Origin: Phycisphaerae bacterium
Lineage (GTDB): Bacteria > Planctomycetota > Phycisphaerae > Sedimentisphaerales > UBA12454
Direction of reading: 5' to 3'
Assembly (NCBI GenBank): GCA_041661665.1
Contig: JBAZTW010000002.1
Location: 62,764-126,763, forward strand
Length of the DNA: 64,000 nucleotides
Shown here one piece after another: positions 1,548 through 61,097 of the stretch (positions are counted from its first letter, which is position 1; every line of letters begins with the position of its first letter). Position numbers and translations under genes: made by a program. Below the pieces are notes generated by a model. The model did no database searches, was not told where the DNA came from, and worked only from the letters and a program-made list of their open reading frames with translations.

Positions 1548-4412
1548 ATGACAAAAAACATATCGAAGGCCAAGTGGATATGGACAAGTAAGGAAAGCAG
1601 TAAAAAATATAATCAAACGATTATTGCCAAAAAAACTTTTTCATATCACTCGGCGGTAACAAAGGCTGTTATTCGTATAACTGCCGATAGTTTCTATCGG
1701 CTCTATGTGAATAATGTATGGATCAATGATGGTCCGTGCAGAGCATGGCCTGAAAACTATTACTATGATGAACTTGATATAACACAACACCTTGTAAAAG
1801 ATTCGAATGAACTCCTCGTCGTTGCCAGATATTATGGAACAGGCGATTTTCATAGAGTTCCTATCCAGGGAGGACTTCTCGCGCAGCTCGATTTGAAGTT
1901 TTTAGACAATACCGAACAGAGTATAATCACAGACAGGTCGTGGCAGGTAAAGCAAGCCAATCAATGGATAAGTAACACCCCAAAAGCAAGTATTCAAATG
2001 GAACCGTACGAATACTACGATGCAAGACTTGAGAACTCGGGCAATTATACCGATGCGACGGAATTGTACGAGTCCGATAAGGGGCCATGGAAAGATTTGA
2101 GAAGTAGAGATGTCAGTCTGCTTACAAAAAATTATTTTGCTATTAAATCGTTAGCAGGCATGAACATTGTTGAAAATAATAAGGATAGCTGTTATTGTCT
2201 TGCCGCCGCACAACTTGTTCATCCGGAACTCATCGAAGCAAACATAAATACCAGCGTGCCGTGCGCGATTGCTTCAGAATTCGATGTCCAGCAAGATACT
2301 ACTATCAAATTTCTGACAAATGATTTTAAAGTCGCGATAGATGGCCGAATAATAGCTAATTATAAAGAGCACAGTCTGAATAAAGGAAAACATTTTGTAT
2401 TCGCGACCATTGATGATTTAACAGGGCATCAAAAGGCGCGGATATTAAGATATAGCTGCTCACAACATATTCTTTTGTCAAATCCTGTCAAGCCGCTTAA
2501 TGCGAACCCATGGTGTTTTGTAAACTTCAAAGAATTCGCTTTTGCCAAAAACGATCTGATCTGGCTGGATTTTTCTGATGAAGATAATGAGCTGGTACAA
2601 GCCAAAAGTGGTTATGCCGATTTGACTCAAAATCTGTTATGCACTATAACAAGCGCCCAGGATTTTAAAGCCAATCTTGCCAACAGATGCCAATGTCTTG
2701 ATTTTGACACGATGTTTTTTAAAGACCAAAGTTGGAAGTTCGAAAATAGAAAAGTACTCGTACCGGCAAATGCTTATGTGTTTGAGCCTTCGGCGTTGAT
2801 AAAGGATGACCAAAATGTAACGGTGGTGAATCCATCTAAAAAGGGCGATATAGAACTGGTTTATGACCTTGGAGAGCAAAACTGCGGTTATTACTCTTTC
2901 GACTTAAATGCCGATGAAGGAGTACAGATAGACATAAATGAAGTGGAATATATAACAGACAGCGGTATTGTTCAGCATACCCCGCTTTACAAAAATGGCC
3001 TGACCTATATTACCAAACAAGGTAACAATCATTTCATTTCCTTAAAGAGACGTTCAGGCAGATATCTCTTTGTCGCATTTCGAAACATGGTTGCACCTGT
3101 CAGAATTAGGAATATAAAGCTAATTGAATCAACATATCCCATTGATAAAATCGCTAATTTTGTTTGCAGCGATGAACATCTGAATAAAATTTGGGATATT
3201 TCGATTAGAACGCTGAAATTGTGCATGGAAGACACATTTACGGATTGCCCGCTCTATGAGCAAACGCTATGGGTTGGAGATGCCAGAAACGAGGCTTTAT
3301 TCGCCTTGTCTGCATTTAACAGTATAGATATTACAAAACGATGCATCAAATTAGCCGCTCAATCATTAGAGAGGTTTCCGATGATTAGCTGTCAGGTGCC
3401 TTCATGTTGGGAGACTATCATACCTGCGTGGAGTTTTCTGTGGGTAATCTCTGCATGGGATTATTATTACTACAGTGGCGATAAGGCCTTTTTGGAAGAA
3501 ATGTGGCCTGCGATAACAAAAAATCTCAAATCAGCAGAATCCTATATCGATAGCAACGGCTTGTTCAGCAGTACTTTCTGGAACTTGTTTGACTGGGCCG
3601 CTATTGACTGGAATAAGAAAAAAGTTGTTATGCACAACAGTATGCTCCTGGTTGGCGCTGTTCAAGCCGCATTAAGATGTTCGCAGGCAATAGGAATGGA
3701 TGGCGAACAAAATTGGTTGAAAAGTCTTGCTTCCCGCCTAAGCAATTCAATTAATAAATTCTGGAATGATGAAAAAAAGGCATACCCTGATAGCCTGGAT
3801 GATAATGGGCTGCCTTCAAATTCGACCTGTCAGCACACAAGCTTTCTTTCGATATTGTATGAGATAGTAGAAAAGAATCGTCTTGATGCGGCAATGAAAA
3901 ACCTGCTTGATCCCCCGAAAATAATGGTAAAGGTAGGTTCACCATTTGCCATTTTTTATCTTTATGAGGCATTGGAGAAGAGAGGCAGAGATGATGAGAT
4001 TGTAAAATCCATAATTCAGAACTATCTGCCAATGTTGGAATACGGTTCAACAACCGTTTGGGAGAGCTTTGCGGAAGGCACACTATCGCACGACACATTC
4101 CCAACCAGAAGTCATTGCCATGCATGGTCGGCCGCACCTATCTACTTTTTTACCAGAATCATACTTGGTGTTAAGGCAGTTTCTCCCGCAGGTAAGGAAA
4201 TCATAATCAGCCCAAGACCCAACGGTCTGACATTTGCCCGAGGTTCTGTTGCCACAATAAACGGGCCGGTTGAAGTGAGTTGGCGTATCAATGACAAACA
4301 AATGGAGCTAAACTACGCGCTGCCCAAGAATGCCAGTGGACATTTTATTAGGAACGATTCCCTTGACGGTCTCGAGGTAATTGTGAACGGGAAGCCATGC
4401 CAGTCACAATAA
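1548..4412 (+). CDS. Glycoside hydrolase family 78-like (alpha-L-rhamnosidase-like) six-hairpin glycosidase
   Basis: 954 aa. N-terminal AKWIW....A.IRITADSFYRLYVNN..I..GP matches the Bac_rhamnosid N-domain pattern. FTDCPLYEQTLWVGDA resembles the GH78 DCP.RE+.GW.GD motif. Confidence 0.75.
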   Translation: MTKNISKAKWIWTSKESSKKYNQTIIAKKTFSYHSAVTKAVIRITADSFYRLYVNNVWINDGPCRAWPENYYYDELDITQHLVKDSNELLVVARYYGTGDFHRVPIQGGLLAQLDLKFLDNTEQSIITDRSWQVKQANQWISNTPKASIQMEPYEYYDARLENSGNYTDATELYESDKGPWKDLRSRDVSLLTKNYFAIKSLAGMNIVENNKDSCYCLAAAQLVHPELIEANINTSVPCAIASEFDVQQDTTIKFLTNDFKVAIDGRIIANYKEHSLNKGKHFVFATIDDLTGHQKARILRYSCSQHILLSNPVKPLNANPWCFVNFKEFAFAKNDLIWLDFSDEDNELVQAKSGYADLTQNLLCTITSAQDFKANLANRCQCLDFDTMFFKDQSWKFENRKVLVPANAYVFEPSALIKDDQNVTVVNPSKKGDIELVYDLGEQNCGYYSFDLNADEGVQIDINEVEYITDSGIVQHTPLYKNGLTYITKQGNNHFISLKRRSGRYLFVAFRNMVAPVRIRNIKLIESTYPIDKIANFVCSDEHLNKIWDISIRTLKLCMEDTFTDCPLYEQTLWVGDARNEALFALSAFNSIDITKRCIKLAAQSLERFPMISCQVPSCWETIIPAWSFLWVISAWDYYYYSGDKAFLEEMWPAITKNLKSAESYIDSNGLFSSTFWNLFDWAAIDWNKKKVVMHNSMLLVGAVQAALRCSQAIGMDGEQNWLKSLASRLSNSINKFWNDEKKAYPDSLDDNGLPSNSTCQHTSFLSILYEIVEKNRLDAAMKNLLDPPKIMVKVGSPFAIFYLYEALEKRGRDDEIVKSIIQNYLPMLEYGSTTVWESFAEGTLSHDTFPTRSHCHAWSAAPIYFFTRIILGVKAVSPAGKEIIISPRPNGLTFARGSVATINGPVEVSWRINDKQMELNYALPKNASGHFIRNDSLDGLEVIVNGKPCQSQ

Positions 4413-6050: not shown

Positions 6051-8222
6051 ATGCCGTCTAAAAAAACTTTACTCGTTATTACTTGCTTGTTATTAACTGA
6101 AATCTCTTACGCAAAACCCTTGTCTATGCCATCAAAGTGGTTCAGCATTCCCGTCGTAGGCATAACAGAATTTGACGCGACATATGACGGCATCTCTGCC
6201 CAATACAAAGGTACAATAGCTTACAAAAACAAATTATCGTTTAAAAGTTTAGACTTTGACTTCTTTTGTCAATATCAAGGAACTGACGGCAAGGCGGTGC
6301 TGTTCCAGTTTAATAAGGAACGCCGCGACAGCAGTATTGACGATCATCATTTGCATGGCATGGAGAAATACAATCGCGGTTACGGAGTGTTGTTTGGTTC
6401 AGATGGCTCTGTTGCTATTGAAAAAACATCGGGACAAAACCAACTTGATGAGTTGTTAAACTTATGTCAAAAATACGATATGTCCCATCCTATCCATGTT
6501 CGCATTACACAGCACAAACAGGAAGACAAAATTAAGATTGGCCTGGAAATAAACCGATCAGGTAAGATTTTCAATGTCAGTGATAAGCTCGAAAAAGGTT
6601 TTAGCGACGAAGGCTATATTGGCTTAACAATTTATTCTGGACGCAGCGATGTAAGCCTGAAAAACATTAGTTATGAAGGCGAAGAGTGCGACACAGACCT
6701 TAATGAATCACCGAGGCCATTATATATGGCCGATTACTTTGAGCAGAACAATAGGCGTTTGGTTCATTGGCGTTACGATGAAGGGACGACGGACTTTGAT
6801 AAAGTTCTTATTAATTCATCAGATGGAAGATTGTTAGATACATTGCGTTACCCTCAGGATTACTGGGTTATACCTGCTGATTATACCAGTGATACTCTGT
6901 TGTTATATGCGGAAAATATTGATGGCGATATAAGTTCGCCTGTCACAGTCAGACTCAAAGACAATCACGCAGATTATTACGCCAGGCAATCGCCTGAAAG
7001 AATAACTGTGCGCAAAGGGGATGGGTTTGCCGGTTTTTATAAAAAAGACTCGAAAGAGGTTTTCTTTGTTAAAGGTATGAATTACGTCAGACTTCGTTAT
7101 GGAGACCATTGCACTTTTGAGGCTGATACAAAGGTCGGACCGGCTTGCTATGACCCATATGATGCTGAGACATTGTTTAAGTTAATGAGCAAGTATGGTT
7201 TTAACACGGTGCGTGTGTTTATATCTGGTAGGCGAATTGACAATCCCGGGGTCTCTGGATATTATGAAAATGATGGTATTTATAGTTCTTATGTGGATAA
7301 CTTTATTGATTTCGTCAGACGAGCCAAGAAATACGGTCTTTACGTTTTTCCTGCTTTCTGTGATGGAGAACTGCCGCGTAATAAATTCTATTGGGATATG
7401 ATAAAAGATGCCAAAGAGGGGCTGGTTATTGATGATGTAACAATCAGAACACACAATGCGGTATATGTTACTGTTCAGGGGCACAATGCTCGTAGCCGGT
7501 ATCTAAAAGATTTTCTCGGTTATATTAAATCAAAAGATGCCTTGCTGTTGAAATCACTACTGGCTGTGCAATGTCAGAATGAGTTGTCAATGAATGGGTT
7601 GCAATGGCCTTTTGATATTGTGGAGGGGAGTTTTAACGGGCCGGATGGAAAAGTTTATGATATGAACAATAACGACGAGCGGCAACTGCTGTTTGAAAAC
7701 TCTCTAAATAAATATCATGCCCAAATGGTAAAAGCTATAAAAGAAGTTGATTCTGAGTTATTAATTGGCGAAGGTATTTTTGTGCCTCGTATTGTTGGCA
7801 AGGATTACGACGGAGATAATTATGGCATCCGTAATATTAGCGAATCTGAAAATAGATGTCCGCCAAAGGCATTGACGGTTCTGAACAGTCCGCTGGATTT
7901 TGTTGATATACACATCTACCTCGTGGACAAAAGATATCCGTTGGCCGACAGCTATAAATATGATATGGAATCTACAGGACTATATAGCAGCAAAATGAAG
8001 GAACTGTTGAAAACAAAACCTTTTATTATGGGTGAATTTGGCTCATTCAAGTTTATGGATTCAACATTTGATAAGGCCAAAGGGAGCATCTTGAAAACTC
8101 GCAGTTTGGCCATAAAGGATAATGCGCAGGGTTATATGATGTGGACATGTGATACCTTCGAGCAAAGAAGCATCTGGCATGCAATGGAAAACGAAGACTT
8201 TTTAAAAGATTTATCCAGATAA
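6051..8222 (+). CDS. Secreted glycoside hydrolase, GH5-like catalytic domain with N-terminal accessory domain
   Basis: 723 aa with a signal peptide (MPSKKTLLVITCLLLTEISYA). GFNTVRVFI, a QNELS candidate acid/base and a MGEFGS candidate nucleophile are spaced as in clan GH-A/GH5. Confidence 0.6.
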   Translation: MPSKKTLLVITCLLLTEISYAKPLSMPSKWFSIPVVGITEFDATYDGISAQYKGTIAYKNKLSFKSLDFDFFCQYQGTDGKAVLFQFNKERRDSSIDDHHLHGMEKYNRGYGVLFGSDGSVAIEKTSGQNQLDELLNLCQKYDMSHPIHVRITQHKQEDKIKIGLEINRSGKIFNVSDKLEKGFSDEGYIGLTIYSGRSDVSLKNISYEGEECDTDLNESPRPLYMADYFEQNNRRLVHWRYDEGTTDFDKVLINSSDGRLLDTLRYPQDYWVIPADYTSDTLLLYAENIDGDISSPVTVRLKDNHADYYARQSPERITVRKGDGFAGFYKKDSKEVFFVKGMNYVRLRYGDHCTFEADTKVGPACYDPYDAETLFKLMSKYGFNTVRVFISGRRIDNPGVSGYYENDGIYSSYVDNFIDFVRRAKKYGLYVFPAFCDGELPRNKFYWDMIKDAKEGLVIDDVTIRTHNAVYVTVQGHNARSRYLKDFLGYIKSKDALLLKSLLAVQCQNELSMNGLQWPFDIVEGSFNGPDGKVYDMNNNDERQLLFENSLNKYHAQMVKAIKEVDSELLIGEGIFVPRIVGKDYDGDNYGIRNISESENRCPPKALTVLNSPLDFVDIHIYLVDKRYPLADSYKYDMESTGLYSSKMKELLKTKPFIMGEFGSFKFMDSTFDKAKGSILKTRSLAIKDNAQGYMMWTCDTFEQRSIWHAMENEDFLKDLSR

Positions 8223-10117: not shown

Positions 10118-10266
10118 ATGCGCGAAAATAAAAAATTCACAAAAAACTTGCGCATTATGAGGCAACCGGCGGAGATGATAAATAATCTATCCCCTCTGAC
10201 GATTAGTAGAAAAAAATGTGGCAAGCCGCCTTGACAATATCTCACACAGCAAATACACTACGAATT

Positions 10267-11907
10267 ATGTCTGAATCTGAGAAAAAACCATTTGTCATTT
10301 TCATATATTCTGTCTTGATATTGAGTGCCTTGCTGGTCTTCTGGCGGGTCCGCAATTTCAATTTTGTCACCTACGATGATAATAAATATGTCTACGGAAA
10401 TCAGTACGTTTTAAACGGCCTCACATCCTCCGGCGTCATTTGGGCTTTTACAACCAACGTGTCCAGCCATTGGCATCCTCTGACATGGCTGTCTCTAATG
10501 CTCGACTGCCAGTTGTTCGGCACCAATCCCGGCCGGATGCATCTTGTAAATCTCTTTCTGCATATTGTAAATACTTTGCTGCTTTTCTATATTCTCAAAA
10601 AAATGACAGGCTCATTATGGCCGAGTGCATTTGTCGCCGCCGCCTTTGCCATTCATCCGATGCATGTGGAGTCGGTTGTATGGATAGCGGAACGAAAGGA
10701 TATTTTGAGCGCATTATTCTGGCTCCTTACGACGGCAGCGTATCTTGCCTATGTCCGTCGTCCAGGCGTGTTTCGATATACCATAACTCTGACGCTTTTT
10801 GCGCTTGGCCTTATGGCCAAACCGATGCTCGTAACATTGCCGTTTGTTCTGCTTCTTCTGGACTATTGGCCGCTGGGTCGATTTGCGGCGCATCGAACCG
10901 TCAAGACTGCAGGCGGTAAATCACGCAAACCTGCCCCCGCTTGCGACCGACGCGCGATTCTGTATAAGATAATAATCGAAAAAATTCCCTTTTTAATTCT
11001 TGTTGTTATTTCAAGTGTAATCACTTTCCTGGTGATGCGAAGTAACAGAATAATAGTTGATATGGACGCGTTTCCTCTGAACCGTAGAATTGCCAATGCT
11101 GTCGTTTCTTATGCGAGGTATATGGGTAAAGTATTCTGGCCGCAAAATCTCGCGGTTTTTTATCCTTTGGATGCCAATAGCTTTGTATTCTGGCGGGTTG
11201 TGCTTTGTGCCGTGCTATTGGTTGGTATATCTTTTCTCGTGATTCGCTTTGGACGGAAACAAAAGTATTTGCCGGTTGGCTGGTTCTGGTTTGCCGGAAC
11301 GCTTATACCAGTCATAGGCCTTGTTCAGGTTGGCGGCCAGGCGTATGCCGACCGATACACCTACATCTCGTATATAGGTCTTTTTATAATGATTGCGTGG
11401 GGGCTGCCGGAGCTTTTTTTGAGATGGCCGCTGCGAAAAATCGTTCTCGGCCTATCGATGGTAATAGTACTGACAACACTCGGAATATGCGCCAGCCTGC
11501 AGGTAAGCCATTGGAAGAACAGCGTCAGCCTTTTTACCCATGCGATTAAAGTAACGAAGGATAATTATATTGCGTACAGCAATCTTGGAGCTGCCTACGG
11601 CAAACTTGGCCGCTATCAGGATGAGATAGAATCCTGTAAACAGGCTATCAGAATCAAGCCGGATTTGGCCGAGGCGTACAATAATGTTGGCAATGCCTGC
11701 GGCAACCTCGGTCGTTGGCAGGATGCGATAGAGGCCTATAAGCAGGCTGTAAGAATCAGGCCTGATTTAGCCGAGGCGCACTATAATCTTGGAGCGGCGT
11801 ATTTAACAACCGGCAGCAAAGGTTTAGCCATTGAAGAATATAAAATCTTAAAAACACTGAACGCTGAGATGGCAAACGAATTGTTTAACTTGATTGATTA
11901 TAAGTAG
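10267..11907 (+). CDS. TMTC-like GT-C glycosyltransferase (DUF1736-type membrane domain) with C-terminal TPR repeats
   Basis: Polytopic N-terminal domain with the first-loop FVTYDDNKYV acidic motif. Three or more C-terminal TPRs (AYSNLGAAYGKLGRYQDEIESCKQAIRIKPDLAEAYNN...). ATG at 10267 preferred; the track ORF starts at 10216. Confidence 0.65.
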   Translation: MSESEKKPFVIFIYSVLILSALLVFWRVRNFNFVTYDDNKYVYGNQYVLNGLTSSGVIWAFTTNVSSHWHPLTWLSLMLDCQLFGTNPGRMHLVNLFLHIVNTLLLFYILKKMTGSLWPSAFVAAAFAIHPMHVESVVWIAERKDILSALFWLLTTAAYLAYVRRPGVFRYTITLTLFALGLMAKPMLVTLPFVLLLLDYWPLGRFAAHRTVKTAGGKSRKPAPACDRRAILYKIIIEKIPFLILVVISSVITFLVMRSNRIIVDMDAFPLNRRIANAVVSYARYMGKVFWPQNLAVFYPLDANSFVFWRVVLCAVLLVGISFLVIRFGRKQKYLPVGWFWFAGTLIPVIGLVQVGGQAYADRYTYISYIGLFIMIAWGLPELFLRWPLRKIVLGLSMVIVLTTLGICASLQVSHWKNSVSLFTHAIKVTKDNYIAYSNLGAAYGKLGRYQDEIESCKQAIRIKPDLAEAYNNVGNACGNLGRWQDAIEAYKQAVRIRPDLAEAHYNLGAAYLTTGSKGLAIEEYKILKTLNAEMANELFNLIDYK

Positions 11908-12144: not shown

Positions 12145-12531
12145 CAGAGCCCAAGCGACAGCGCAGGGTGTTTCGTAGGGGCAGACCTATGTGTCTGCCC
12201 ACTGTCATTCCTCGAAGACCCCTTTGGGGGAGCGCAGTCGAACCAAGGCGGGAATCCATTGTATTTAGCCCCCTGGCCTGCCAGGGGGTTCATCATTCCA
12301 ATCGCATCAGAACGCAGGGTGTTTCGTAGGGGCAGACCTATGTGTCTGCCCACTGTCATTCCTCGAAGACCACTTTGGGGGAGCGCAGTCGAACCAAGGC
12401 GGGAATCCATTGTATTTAGCCCCCTGGCCTGCCAGGGGGTTCATCATTCCAACCGCATCAGAGCGTAGGGTGTTTCGTAGGGGCAAGACCTATGTGTCTG
12501 CCCACAAACAGAGCCCCAAGGGTAACGCGGG
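12145..12531. repeat. REP/BIME-like array: 151-bp composite unit x about 2.3, bounded by CAGAGCCC.AAG...GCG.GGG motifs
   Basis: GGGTGTTTCG recurs at 12166, 12317 and 12468 (period 151). Units 1 and 2 differ at about 4 positions. Each unit contains hairpins GGCAGAC-CTATGT-GTCTGCC and CCCCCTGG-CCTG-CCAGGGGG. The flanking motif 12145-12168 is the exact reverse complement of 26075-26098. Confidence 0.9.
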
Positions 12532-27208: not shown

Positions 27209-27398
27209 AGGGTAAGTACAAACGAGTCTTAATTGGGGTTGGGAAGTAACATCATTTTCTTAGTTTAAACAACTGCGGATTTTTCTGCACAGATTATTTA
27301 TTGGGGTGTCCCGTTATAAAAATGACGGGTCTGAACATCTAAAATTGGGGTAATAACCTATTGCGATATAGAGATACTATGCGCACTGACAGATTTAT

Positions 27399-27423
27399 GT
27401 CATTCCCGCGAAGGCGGGAATCC
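27399..27423. repeat. REP-type hairpin GTCATTCCCGC-GAAG-GCGGGAATCC
   Basis: 8-bp perfect stem ATTCCCGC/GCGGGAAT. The same element occurs in reverse orientation inside hypF at 41523-41546. Confidence 0.85.
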
Positions 27424-27501
27424 AGTTTTGAGTTTTGTTTAATTCGGATTTGTTTAGGATTTAGATATTAGAATTTCGATTTTTTTTATGGGGTGGTTGT
27501 T

Positions 27502-34220: not shown

Positions 34221-34256
34221 GAACCTCTAAGGGAAAAGACAGCCGCAGTGATATAA

Positions 34257-34356
34257 ATTGAAGAATGAAGATTGTAGATTGAAGATTTTTAATTTTAAAA
34301 TAGTCTCGGCACAGCCGAAGCCACAAATCTTCATTTTTCAATCTTCAATTTTCATT
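34257..34356. repeat. Long imperfect palindrome: purine-rich low-complexity arm, central GC hairpin, pyrimidine-rich arm (terminator-like after nadC)
   Basis: Left arm ATTGAAGAATGAAGATTGTAGATTGAAGATTT. Centre TCGGC-ACA-GCCGA (34306-34318). Right arm AAATCTTCATTTTTCAATCTTCAATTTTCATT. Confidence 0.7.
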
Positions 34357-34396
34357 TTTTAAATCCAGTTTTTTCAGATATATTGGAACTTCTAAA

Positions 34397-40322: not shown

Positions 40323-42770
40323 ATGAGAAAAAAAATACAATTATGCGGACAGGTGCAGGGCATCGGGTTTCGGCCATACGTTTATAAACTGGCGAAGGAG
40401 CTTGGCCTGACAGGCATAGTCTATAATCACAGCGAGGGGGCGGCAATTGAAGTCCAGGGCGAAAAGAAAAACATCGATGAATTTATCTCAAGATTAAAAC
40501 TGGCGGAAAAAAGCGATTTGCCGCTGCTGAAAATTATCTCGATGGAAATTTCAGATATTGCCTTAAAAAGCGAAAACACTTTCGAGATTAAGCAAAGTCA
40601 AACCGCAGGGGCGGCAAGGGCGGAAATTACGCCTGATATGGCTATCTGCAAAGATTGTCTGCGCGAGCTTTTTGACAAGAATGATTTTCGCTATCGCTAT
40701 CCATTTATCAACTGCACAAACTGCGGCCCTCGCTATTCGATAATCAAAACCATACCATACGACAGACCGAACACAACAATGTCCGCATTCAAACTGTGCG
40801 ACAAATGCAATGGGCAATATGGCAATCCCGCGGACAGACGATTCCACGCCCAGCCTGTCGCCTGCGCGGTTTGCGGGCCTAAGATAAAGCTATGCGATAA
40901 TAAAGGCAGCACAATTGAAGCTGACTCCGATTCGGCGATTAGAAAAACGGCGGAATTATTGGCTGCCGGCAAAATAGCGGCAATCAAAGGGCTTGGCGGA
41001 TACCATTTAGCCTGCGACGCTGAAAATGATGATGCGGTCAAATTGCTAAGAACCCGCAAAATGCGAGATTATAAACCGTTTGCGATTATGGCAGGGAGCG
41101 TCGATATAATTCGTAAGTTCGCCTGTGTGGATGAGATTTCAGAGAAAGTTCTTAAGAGCATTCAGTCGCCGATTGTGCTATTGCCTAAAAAAACGCCGAA
41201 CACAATCGCGGCATCCGTCGCGGCGGGCGTGAACACGTTCGGTTTTATGCTGCCTTATACGCCTTTGCATTATTTGCTTTTTGCCGAGAAAAAATTTGAT
41301 TGCCTGATTATGACCAGCGGCAATGTTTCCGATGAACCGCTGATTTGCAAAGACCAGCAGGCTTTTGAAAAATTAGCTGATATTGCTGATGTTTTTTTGA
41401 TTCACGACAGGGAAATTTACAGGCAGGTTGACGATTCGGTTGTGCATATTGTCAAAAACGAACCTGTGCCCCTTCGCCGGTCGAGGGGTTTTGTTCCGCA
41501 GACATTTGTTTTGAAAGGGATAGATTCCCGCCTGCGCGGGAATGACAAAGAGATTGCCGCGTCGTCCCGAAGCGGAACTCCTCGCAATGACATATTTGCC
41601 GCGGGGGCGGATTTGAAAAATACTTTCTGCCTTGCGAAGCAAAATCGTTTTGCCGTCAGCGAGCATATAGGCGATTTAGCTGATTCCAATGTTTATAAAC
41701 ACTGGATAGACTCCATTGGGCATTTAAAAAAACTGCTTGATATTGAGCCGGAAGTCTTCGCCTGCGACCTGCACCCAAACTATTTTACAAGCCAATACAC
41801 AAGAAAAATCTCAAAGGGCAAAAAACTCATCGAAATTCAGCATCATTGGGCGCATATCGCATCGGTGATTGCCGAGCATAATATAGCCGACAGTGTAATC
41901 GGCCTTGTCGCTGATGGCACAGGCTTCGGCACGGATGGGGCTGTCTGGGGATGCGAATGTCTTATCGCTTCATTAACGGAGTTTAAGCGTTTTGGGCATT
42001 TGGCGTATTATCCTCTTGGCGGCGGCGATTCGGCCGCAAAGCAGGCAATCAGGCCTCTGTTGGGACTGGCGGCAAAATACAATTTAACTATTCCACAGGA
42101 TATTCTGGAATCCATTGAATCGGACGGCGAAAAAATAAATATTATAAAAACGCAGTTGGAAAAAAATATCAATACCGTCCAGACATCGAGCTTGGGCAGA
42201 TTGTTTGACGCTGTCGCGGCAGTTTGCGGACTTGGCGGCAAAAATAATTTTGAAGCTGAATTGCCGATGGCACTTGAAGCCGCCGCGGACAAAAACATCA
42301 AAGATTATTATACGTTTGAACTGATAAATGGCGAAATTCAAATAGGGAAAATGCTCGAAGAAATTTTAACAGATACAAAAAAGTTGTCATTTCGACCGGA
42401 ATTCGTCCCGAAAATCGGGACGAATGAAGCGGAGAAATCTGTTTTAAATAGATTTCTCGATTCCGGCGACAAAGTCGCCTCCACTCGAAATGACAGGGCT
42501 GAAGCATATTCTAATGTGGGCACAATTTCCGCGAAATTCCATAACACCATCGCGCAATTTTTTCTCACTCTGGCCAAATCCGCAAAAGAACAGACCGGTA
42601 TAAACATCGTTGCGGTGAGCGGGGGGGTATTTTGCAACAGATTTTTGCTTGCTCGGCTGATTGAGCTTTTGGAGGCAAACGGGTTTGAGGTTTTTTATAA
42701 TCGGCTTGTGCCGGCAAACGATGGCGGAATCTCGTTAGGCCAGGCAGCGATAGCGGCAAACAGAGAATAA
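40323..42770 (+). CDS. hypF: [NiFe]-hydrogenase maturation carbamoyltransferase HypF
   Basis: 815 aa. Acylphosphatase domain (GQVQGIGFRPYVY), two Zn-finger pairs (CKDC...CTNCGPR, CDKC...CAVCGP), YrdC-like and Kae1-like domains. Contains two in-frame palindromic-element segments. Confidence 0.9.
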   Translation: MRKKIQLCGQVQGIGFRPYVYKLAKELGLTGIVYNHSEGAAIEVQGEKKNIDEFISRLKLAEKSDLPLLKIISMEISDIALKSENTFEIKQSQTAGAARAEITPDMAICKDCLRELFDKNDFRYRYPFINCTNCGPRYSIIKTIPYDRPNTTMSAFKLCDKCNGQYGNPADRRFHAQPVACAVCGPKIKLCDNKGSTIEADSDSAIRKTAELLAAGKIAAIKGLGGYHLACDAENDDAVKLLRTRKMRDYKPFAIMAGSVDIIRKFACVDEISEKVLKSIQSPIVLLPKKTPNTIAASVAAGVNTFGFMLPYTPLHYLLFAEKKFDCLIMTSGNVSDEPLICKDQQAFEKLADIADVFLIHDREIYRQVDDSVVHIVKNEPVPLRRSRGFVPQTFVLKGIDSRLRGNDKEIAASSRSGTPRNDIFAAGADLKNTFCLAKQNRFAVSEHIGDLADSNVYKHWIDSIGHLKKLLDIEPEVFACDLHPNYFTSQYTRKISKGKKLIEIQHHWAHIASVIAEHNIADSVIGLVADGTGFGTDGAVWGCECLIASLTEFKRFGHLAYYPLGGGDSAAKQAIRPLLGLAAKYNLTIPQDILESIESDGEKINIIKTQLEKNINTVQTSSLGRLFDAVAAVCGLGGKNNFEAELPMALEAAADKNIKDYYTFELINGEIQIGKMLEEILTDTKKLSFRPEFVPKIGTNEAEKSVLNRFLDSGDKVASTRNDRAEAYSNVGTISAKFHNTIAQFFLTLAKSAKEQTGINIVAVSGGVFCNRFLLARLIELLEANGFEVFYNRLVPANDGGISLGQAAIAANRE
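41523..41591. repeat. Palindromic REP-like segment 1 inside hypF (in frame)
   Basis: GATTCCCGC-CTGC-GCGGGAATGAC is the near-exact reverse complement of 27399-27423. It is followed by GAGATTGCCGCG...CTCGCAATGAC. Encodes DSRLRGNDKEIAASSRSGTPRND. Confidence 0.75.
42386..42494. repeat. Nested palindromic MITE/REP-like segment 2 inside hypF (in frame)
   Basis: Outer inverted repeats GTCATTTCGA/TCGAAATGAC and CCGGAAT/ATTCCGG. Inner perfect stems ATTCGTCCCGA/TCGGGACGAAT, GAGAAATCT/AGATTTCTC and GGCGAC/GTCGCC. Confidence 0.75.
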
Positions 42771-60920: not shown

Positions 60921-61023
60921 AGGACAAAGGAGGCAAAGAGGTAAGGAATCAAGGATTTTACAGAGCCGCGACAGTACTATAGCGGTAAATCCTTATTTCT
61001 TTACATCTTTATTTCCTTATTTT
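60921..61023. repeat. Imperfect long palindrome of purine-rich and pyrimidine-rich low-complexity arms directly upstream of tRNA-Thr
   Basis: Left arm AGGACAAAGGAGGCAAAGAGGTAAGGAATCAAGGATTT. Centre contains CAGAGCCGCGACAG and a CCGC..GCGG stem. Right arm AAATCCTTATTTCTTTACATCTTTATTTCCTTATTTT. Confidence 0.65.
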
Positions 61024-61025
61024 GT

Positions 61026-61097
61026 GCCGATGTAGCTCAATGGTAGAGCACGGCTTTCGTAAAGCCGGGGTTATGGGTTCAAGTCCCGTCATCGGCT
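61026..61097 (+). tRNA. tRNA-Thr (anticodon CGU)
   Basis: 72 nt, folded by hand: acceptor GCCGATG/CATCGGC, D arm GCTC-AATGGTA-GAGC, anticodon arm CGGCT-TTCGTAA-AGCCG (CGT), variable GGGTT, T arm ATGGG-TTCAAGT-CCCGT, discriminator T. No encoded CCA. Confidence 0.9.

Follow-up and report, generated by a model that had tools for sequence, protein, structure and literature searches.

In-frame hairpin repeats in hypF of a Phycisphaerae bacterium, very probably inserted members of the CGTC/TGTC-tagged REP superfamily

The CGTC-tagged repetitive extragenic palindromic (REP) sequences surveyed by Di Nocera et al. (2013, PMC3733652) are described there as hairpins with a CGTC (often TGTC) tag, a stem of 8–9 bp that starts with AT, a loop of 4–5 nt and a CCA tail. 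In that account the CGTC-1 type is the same as the dRS3 repeat of Neisseria and the palindromic element RPE-6 of Rickettsia, head-out (HH) dimers prevail, and single and dimeric copies that lie in frame within genes and encode 20–30 amino acids are catalogued, with a proposed location in linkers and loops. The dRS3 repeat is encompassed by the Neisseria repeat NTS, CGTCATTCCCGCGMAVGCGGGAATCYRG (Chenal et al. 2025, PMC11893778); degenerate Ssn-related motifs (SRM) are described in the same paper as flanking genes for small GIY-YIG nucleases (SsnA), which cut them as single-stranded DNA. Here, we analyse a 64,000-nt stretch of a Phycisphaerae genome (contig JBAZTW010000002.1, positions 62,764–126,763; hereafter the window), in which the gene for the carbamoyltransferase HypF had been read, from the sequence alone, as running through palindromic DNA at two places. 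Both the open reading frame (ORF) and the inverted repeats are confirmed. We conclude that the two segments are, with high probability, lineage-specific in-frame insertions of hairpin repeats that belong to the CGTC/TGTC-tagged REP superfamily.

The features of hypF on which this conclusion rests are as follows; L001, L004, L005 and L006 are loci of close relatives.

40323–42770, plus strand: hypF (carbamoyltransferase HypF), 815 amino acids, from the ORF listing; the frame is open through all the inserted repeats.
41520–41547, minus strand: unit 1a, TGTCATTCCCGCGCAGGCGGGAATCTAT, a REP of the NTS/SRM (CGTC-1, dRS3) type with a TGTC tag, a stem of 8 bp and a loop of 4 nt.
41547–41592, minus strand: unit 1b, TGTCATTGCGAGGAGTTCCGCTTCGGGACGACGCGGCAATCTCTTT, TGTC-tagged with ATTGC/GCAAT ends; it encodes KEIAASSRSGTPRND and shares base 41547 with the head of 1a.
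42385–42495, no strand assigned: element 2, read as a 111-nt head-out dimer of inverted TGTCATTTCGA...GAGAAATC units; it encodes (L)SFRPEFVPKIGTNEAEKSVLNRFLDSGDKVASTRND.
42385–42395 and 42485–42495: the heads of element 2, an outer inverted repeat TGTCATTTCGA/TCGAAATGACA of 11 bp, perfect.
42432–42458: the central hairpin of element 2, 9 bp perfect within 13.
42401–42425 and 42465–42479: the nested hairpins of element 2, of 11 bp and 6 bp, respectively.
42496–42513, plus strand: junction codons R-A-E-A-Y-S beside element 2, with approximate boundaries from codon comparison with L001, L004, L005, L006 and 77 orthologues.

We aligned 78 HypF proteins (58–88% identity; alignment A2) and measured the length of three stretches:

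Site 1, RGFVPQ to IFAAG: usually 18 amino acids (66 of 78 proteins); 37 in the window.
Site 2, EI..D to ISAKFHNT: usually 18 amino acids (76 of 78); 59 in the window.
Site 3, around window residue 602: usually 17 amino acids (74 of 78); 17 in the window.

Relative to the majority of orthologues, the window protein has gained a net 19 amino acids at site 1 and 41 at site 2, in place of the ~25 and ~36 estimated by the sequence-only reading. That reading placed the inserts correctly: the frame is unbroken, the first insert follows RRSRGFVPQ and the second lies just before ISAKFHNT. The site 2 segment was found in the window only, the other 77 HypFs of the alignment being without it. Both segments are missing from E. 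coli HypF and from the solved structures 3VTH and 4G9I, to which HMMER alignments gap exactly there. The suggestion that the segments are lineage-specific indels is thus borne out by the orthologue alignment, since they are absent from these three proteins and from most close HypFs.

We also aligned hypF at the DNA level with four close relatives in which the gene order is conserved (L001, L004, L005 and L006); their hypF genes are 82–86% identical to that of the window and come from independent assemblies (ENA, NCBI and Logan). Both filled and empty sites were present. Site 1 occurs in four states: no repeat (P0003 and P0004); unit 1a alone, as GATTCCCGCCTGCGCGGGAATGAC (P0005 and P0006); a 1b variant, AAAGAGATTGCCGCG...CTCGCAATGAC, then a fragment ending CGGTCGAAATGAC, with a second TGTCATTTCGACCG head (P0002); and 1a followed by 1b (window). 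Because 1a and a 1b variant each occur without the other in relatives, and some relatives lack both, segment 1 cannot be the single element that it was first taken for; it consists of two separate units. In P0006, whose hypF lies in L004, a second in-frame 1a, inserted independently, and a further AATGAC-ended piece occupy a third site of the gene (11757–11823; window residue ~602), at which every other compared sequence is short. We conclude, as judged from these alignments, that repeat gain or loss has happened several times inside a clade with 82–86% identical hypF DNA.

Unit 1a encodes the peptide DSRLRGND on the sense strand. The sense sequence GATTCCCGCCTGCGCGGGAATGAC lies at 41523–41546, and its perfect 8-bp stem, ATTCCCGC/GCGGGAAT, forms the hairpin ATTCCCGC-CTGC-GCGGGAAT at 41524–41543. 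Read as a unit, 1a has the stem ATTCCCGC, the loop GCAG and the tail CTA. An intergenic hairpin at 27399–27423 had been described as its reverse complement apart from the loop; a single loop base differs. Exactly two occurrences of ATTCCCGC-N4-GCGGGAAT are found in the window, against 0.02 expected, and the published SRM pattern, HGTCWYN(0-2)YYVSBRHN(0-5)WNVSBRGN(0-2)RNCYNB, matches the same two places (1a and the 27398 copy), against 0.22 matches in shuffled sequence. Related copies in the window are as follows:

27398–27425, plus strand: intergenic copy of unit 1a, TGTCATTCCCGCGAAGGCGGGAATCCAG, with a CCA-type tail (CCA), one position (the first base) off the NTS consensus.
12203–12258, plus strand: possible long variant of 1a, TGTCATTCC...GCGGGAATCCA, alike in head and tail only; a second copy lies at 12354–12409.

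The possible long variants lie in a 151-bp tandem mosaic. This intergenic array (12162–12505) contains 2.3 copies of the 151-bp unit at 97% identity, and the unit is itself a mosaic of a GTAG-tagged REP hairpin (GTAGGGGCAGACCTATGTGTCTGCCC), the TGTCATTCC...GCGGGAATCCA unit and a CCCCCTGGCCTGCCAGGGGG hairpin; hence, GTAG-type and TGTC-type repeats coexist in the window. Overall, the window holds two SRM units and one element 2. The claim that the same kind of palindromic DNA fills the intergenic regions therefore stands for one more 1a and two possible long variants, and falls for the rest: there is no other element 2, and the other palindromes belong to other families.

The 24 nt of unit 1a are identical (24/24) in the window, at two sites in L004, and in L006, whereas the genes differ at 17–18% of positions and dS (synonymous divergence) between the window and L004 or L006 is 0.7–0.8. 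If the sites had diverged independently at the gene-wide rate, the chance of such identity would be ~1% per pair. Such identity is a sign of recent insertion, of gene conversion involving other copies, or of constraint acting on the DNA itself, three alternatives that are indistinguishable here.

Unit 1b also has counterparts elsewhere. Its head and tail (TGTCATTGCGAG...GGCAATCTCTTT) occur three times in an intergenic mosaic of L001 (7000–7434), the same region being present in L002. At the hypF site itself, a 1b variant is found in L005 and a 1b-type unit in opposite orientation (TGTCATTGCGAGG) in P0078 (L246). A TGTCATT head on the antisense strand is common to all units, and an unpaired TGTC precedes ATT in 1a, in 1b and at both ends of element 2.

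The inverted repeats of element 2 had been noted together with CCGGAAT/ATTCCGG, which is present; the span given then is one base too narrow on each side, since the element runs from 42385 to 42495. The three inner stems of 11, 9 and 6 bp reported for it are all there, the 9 bp being the perfect part of a stem of 13. As single-stranded DNA, element 2 folds into three hairpins inside an outer stem at −38.7 kcal/mol (z = −9.1), and none of 200 shuffled sequences folds as well; segment 1 folds more weakly (z = −2.4). Only one of the three sense-strand frames of element 2 is free of stops, and it is the frame used. A covariance model (R1) built from 33 other family copies, with element 2 left out, scores element 2 at 73.7 bits (E = 3.3e-17). 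Because its halves, GTC-ATTTC...GAAAT-C, line up with the NTS arrangement GTC-ATTCCCGC...GCGGGAAT-C, we interpret element 2 as a head-out dimer of a putative weaker-stemmed variant in the same superfamily as NTS.

We searched for this family in one genome per species, using the pattern TGTCATTTCGA-N70-100-TCGAAATGACA, and found at least 120 genome loci where ~1–2 are estimated by chance. The genome loci listed span Flavobacterium, Mucilaginibacter, Anaerolineae, Clostridia, Nitrospira, Bifidobacterium, Planctomycetota and others. Among the matches listed, the inner pair of element 2, GAGAAATC...GATTTCTC, is common to nearly all 127 copies. The 18-mer TGTCATTTCGACCGGAAT was found at a minimum of 119 metagenome loci. 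Near relatives of element 2 at L133, L174 and L192 have hairpins of other sequence at both of its nested-hairpin positions. In the CCGGAAT subfamily (L128, L133, L174, L185, L192 and others), hairpin positions are fixed and hairpin sequence and length are wholly changed, which suggests either that shape is under selection or that small hairpins have nested there repeatedly. Stop-free frames of 150 amino acids or more enclose only five of the 127 genome copies listed, and no Pfam domain was found in those five frames, making in-frame insertion elsewhere only putative; on this evidence, the element-2 family is essentially intergenic, as far as sequence context indicates. An element-2-type copy was noted at 3541–3658 of L025, within a 1162-amino-acid stop-free frame without a Pfam domain in another Planctomycetota metagenome-assembled genome (MAG). 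Rfam 15, searched with the hypF region at E ≤ 10 and with the whole window at gathering score, has no family for any element; a Francisella FtrB match stayed below threshold (24.3 bits against 66) and is due to the shared 1a hairpin. The sole gathering-score match in the window is a tRNA at 61026–61097.

Three repeats of other kinds were observed in the window. AT-rich inverted repeats with ~30 nt per arm surround GC-rich cores at 34252–34361 (CTCGGCACAGCCGAAGCC) and 60927–61018 (CAGAGCCGCGACAG); the second core resembles a motif of the L001 intergenic mosaic, and its repeat ends just upstream of the tRNA. A 102-bp tandem repeat (11581–11792; 2.1 copies, 78% identity) lies within a 563-amino-acid ORF at 10216–11907.

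All the domains of HypF are encoded in the 815-amino-acid ORF: acylphosphatase, two HypF zinc fingers, YrdC-like, and both Kae1-like subdomains (five Pfam HypF domains). The protein matches the solved Caldanaerobacter HypF 3VTH in a profile search (E = 1.8e-195), and an identical protein is recorded as 'MAG: carbamoyltransferase HypF [Phycisphaerae bacterium]' (P0001). Every invariant HypF column of the 78-sequence alignment is retained, and the ratio of nonsynonymous to synonymous substitution (dN/dS) is 0.115–0.133 between the window and four orthologues. We used the same alignment to build an AlphaFold2 model, which has a mean predicted local distance difference test (pLDDT) of 79.8 and a predicted TM-score (pTM) of 0.82, and superposes on full-length 3vth_A with TM-scores of 0.78/0.84. 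pLDDT falls below 50 in parts of the zinc-finger region, at 336–340 and in both inserts (400–419 and 690–725). The inserts are the main low-confidence stretches in the C-terminal half of the model and are flanked by confidently modelled elements. Site 1 is the linker that joins the YrdC-like and Kae1-like domains. Site 2 joins helix 675–689 to a long helix ending at 758 in the Kae1-like domain, a region around which the solved HypFs are likewise unaligned. The proposal that the inserts are surface loops agrees with the low pLDDT of both, as a prediction. Because the invariant columns are kept, dN/dS is low, the model is HypF-like and no terminator-like signal was found at the hypF elements, hypF looks functional, with the inserts presumably translated and modelled as flexible loops.

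Readings of the inserts as inteins, introns or intrinsic terminators were rejected: they are too small for inteins, they are in frame without stops, and no T-run follows them. Elsewhere in hypF, the conserved Kae1-like part contains a 22-nt near-perfect palindrome at 41685–41706 (TCCAATGTTTATAAACACTGGA), probably a chance coding feature.

The linker at site 1 is occupied by other repeats in other lineages. At least five other repeat types were found in the equivalent of window residues 396–423 in Phycisphaerae-like lineages: P0066, P0069, P0070 (L248) and P0082 carry a 70-nt palindrome encoding RRASCVMR...TQYAIRNTQYE; P0090 (L247) has two GC-rich hairpins; and P0110 and P0115 have further inserts there. 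P0110 has two inserts and P0115 three separate ones. P0070 also has a (CAAATCT)n run at site 3. We conclude from these sequences that the YrdC–Kae1 linker of HypF is a recurrent permissive site, apparently for at least six repeat types across lineages.

We looked for a gene associated with the element-2 family. Genes for GIY-YIG nucleases were found with a loose regular expression together with a hidden Markov model (HMM); a stricter expression gave none. In ~1.6 Mb there are 11 small PF01541 GIY-YIG ORFs of ~100 amino acids, at 4 of the 120 genome loci and 7 of the 119 metagenome loci listed, most of them directly adjoining element heads. Repeats of the element-2 type lie near the GIY-YIG gene at L235, L112, L019, L114, L221, L241 and L170, and L112 has full and half elements on both sides of the gene. 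At L235, positions 6555–6975 consist of a left arm (TGTCATTTCGACCGGAAT...GGAGAAATC), the GIY-YIG ORF (ATG at 6628 to TGA at 6936) and a right arm (GATTTCTCC...TCGAAATGACA) that the stop codon abuts. Directly upstream of this gene-bearing unit, within 6199–6975, are two short gene-less copies with near-identical arms. The L235 layout looks like an autonomous element beside miniature derivatives, and matches the published NTS-ssnA-NTS arrangement. In NCBIfam, the GIY-YIG proteins gave only a sub-threshold match to group I intron endonuclease.

We propose that units of the form (C/T)GTC-ATTnC...GnAAT-C, with 1a as a canonical NTS/SRM unit, 1b as a related unit with an ATTGC stem and element 2 as a head-out dimer with ATTTC stems and nested hairpins, would normally be intergenic, multicopy repeats, and would have entered hypF without target-site duplication. 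Neither element 2 nor the 1a insertion of P0006 (L004), which is a clean one, has a direct repeat at its flanks, and the flanks of 469 heads gave no defined target site, with a weak T/C preference at −2 and −3. Copies would survive where the inserted length keeps the frame, the frame used has no stop and the site is permissive, as the YrdC–Kae1 interdomain linker and the variable helix–helix connection in the Kae1-like domain may be. The AATGAC heads in hypF all fall in the frame that gives Asn-Asp, the TGA in AATGAC closing one of the three sense frames; we attribute much of this frame pattern to survivorship. New units might join next to existing heads, giving the tandem units of site 1. Units are indeed stacked head-to-tail in one orientation in the window (1a then 1b), in P0002 (two heads) and at the third site of P0006 (two heads). 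Given the structural model, the inserts are most likely translated as disordered surface loops that are neutral or nearly so.

The agent that spreads or maintains the elements would probably be a small GIY-YIG (Ssn-type) nuclease for single-stranded DNA acting in trans, and element 2 would be a gene-less derivative of the arms-plus-GIY-YIG unit seen in other genomes. An Ssn-type nuclease-driven mechanism for the spread of the repeats is, in our estimate, a credible candidate that falls somewhat short of an even chance. We hold with more doubt the wider idea that palindromes headed by (C/T)GTCATT are a mobile class active in many phyla and derive, without its gene, from an insertion-sequence-like unit that encodes nothing but an Ssn-type GIY-YIG nuclease for single-stranded DNA. 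If this were true, nuclease-driven elements would insert with no duplication of the target, by preference next to heads already in place, and would occasionally create new protein loops, and the filled and unfilled hypF sites of close Phycisphaerae would be records of real gain and loss.

Several observations weigh against this account. The insertion at site 1 is not clean: in relatives with 1a alone, 24 nt replace ~12 nt. At site 2, the net insertion is 123 nt and the palindrome 111 nt, leaving 12 extra nt, in the junction codons, unexplained. Units 1b and element 2 fail both the published SRM pattern and the 8–9-bp stem rule of CGTC REPs, having 5-bp ATTGC/ATTTC stems and long loops. No further copy of element 2 was found by blastn-short or by R1 in 143.7 kb (the window, L001, L004, L005 and L006). 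RNAalifold detected almost no usable covariation in the 33 copies; the conserved stems of the family are fixed by the search patterns, so that no covariation is shown, and MAFFT misses the alignment of the variable hairpins. There is no GIY-YIG gene in the window or in the relatives' loci, and the role of SsnA, as set out in PMC11893778, is to cut incoming (transforming) single-stranded DNA.

The alternative that survives best is that the inserts are kept for a function, either because their structure as mRNA or single-stranded DNA regulates hypF or because they form a new loop with a role in the protein. It draws on the 24/24 identity of 1a in the window, L004 (two sites) and L006, despite the 17–18% difference between the genes and a dS of 0.7–0.8, and on the fixed positions that family hairpins hold while their sequence changes. 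However, recent or repeated insertion, or gene conversion, predicts the same conservation of 1a. Moreover, unrelated repeat types occupy the same site in different lineages and most lineages have none, while the inserts are modelled as disordered and terminator-like signals are absent. We therefore consider a retained function unlikely.

Element 2 might instead be a classical miniature inverted-repeat transposable element (MITE), moved by a DDE transposase that recognises its terminal inverted repeats; at 111 nt, with perfect 11-bp inverted repeats at its ends, it has the appearance of one. The first description of the hypF segments as REP/MITE-type elements is upheld for REP, but the lack of a flanking direct repeat at element 2 and at the P0006 1a insertion argues against a classical MITE. 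The 'inverted repeats' are tagged heads that are also present on single 24-nt units, and the sole gene found between the same arms encodes a GIY-YIG nuclease of ~100 amino acids rather than a transposase. A MITE origin is thus very improbable.

We give still less credence to the idea that the segments, chiefly the unique 111-nt palindrome, are artefacts of metagenome assembly. Element 2 does occur in this sequence only, and just one contig is recorded for the identical protein P0001. However, the length of the insertion is a multiple of three and it lies in the sole stop-free sense frame, element 2 is a well-formed family member, and 1a and 1b are found again at this position of the gene in independent ENA, NCBI and Logan assemblies. 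The least probable alternative, that the segments are ancestral HypF loops deleted in other lineages, could accommodate the varying length of site 1 and the P0002 state, which a deletion between AAAGGGAT and AAAGAGAT could produce from a state like that of the window, but can be dismissed for practical purposes, given that solved bacterial and archaeal HypF structures lack both segments, that the short form prevails in 66 of 78 (site 1) and 76 of 78 (site 2) orthologues, and that the DNA of the segments is identical or near-identical to intergenic repeats.

In-frame insertion of REP-superfamily repeats, the reading that we favour, is not new as a phenomenon, since in-frame CGTC-type REPs are already documented. 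What is modestly new is the host phylum, the host gene, the polymorphism in close relatives and the linker hotspot. In-frame colonisation by CGTC/NTS-type repeats, best known from Rickettsia, would reach free-living Planctomycetota and an enzyme of which structures have been solved. The pairing with small GIY-YIG genes is also new for TGTCATTTCGA...GAGAAATC dimers, a type that the published SRM pattern does not cover, and the gene-between-arms arrangement at L235 offers a concrete candidate enzyme. Filled and unfilled alleles at 82–86% nucleotide identity are natural material for the study of repeat insertion, a question left open in those parts of PMC3733652 and PMC11893778 on which we draw. 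For annotation, the peptides DSRLRGND, SFRPE...RFLDS...RND and VIARS...KQS signal repeat-derived sequence and not protein homology.

How do these elements compare with described systems? Like REP/REPIN-RAYT systems and bacterial MITEs, they are short non-coding palindromes found singly, in dimers and in clusters, and the same repeats lie on both sides of a cognate gene. Unlike in those systems, the gene encodes a GIY-YIG nuclease in place of a tyrosine (RAYT) or DDE transposase, (C/T)GTC takes the place of GTAG as the tag, and target-site duplication is absent. The NTS/SRM repeats are closer: unit 1a fits CGTCATTCCCGCGMAVGCGGGAATCYRG with one or two mismatches as well as the SRM search pattern, and element-2-type repeats flank small GIY-YIG genes in a repeat-gene-repeat layout. 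The differences are that the window has no ssn gene and that neither 1b nor element 2 matches the SRM pattern; the relevant sections of PMC11893778 treat intergenic repeats and natural transformation, not in-frame insertions.

With the CGTC-1 repeats, unit 1a and its intergenic copy share the tag, the stem that starts with AT, the 4-nt loop and the CCA-type tail, whereas 1b and element 2 depart from CGTC REPs in their 5-bp ATTGC/ATTTC stems and long branched loops. The CGTC survey (PMC3733652) does not report such repeats in Planctomycetes, and its relevant passages do not show HypF among the hosts. A parallel with the Rickettsia palindromic elements (RPE) had been drawn at the outset, and is closer than analogy, since by the literature (PMC3733652) 1a is the same REP type (CGTC-1) as RPE-6. 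As with the RPE (Ogata et al. 2000, as cited in PMC3733652), palindromes lie in frame in a conserved protein gene, orthologues are without them and the product is presumed functional. Unlike the RPE, the repeats described here are in a host of another phylum and lifestyle, at least three unit types occur in one gene, and close relatives differ in the set that they carry.

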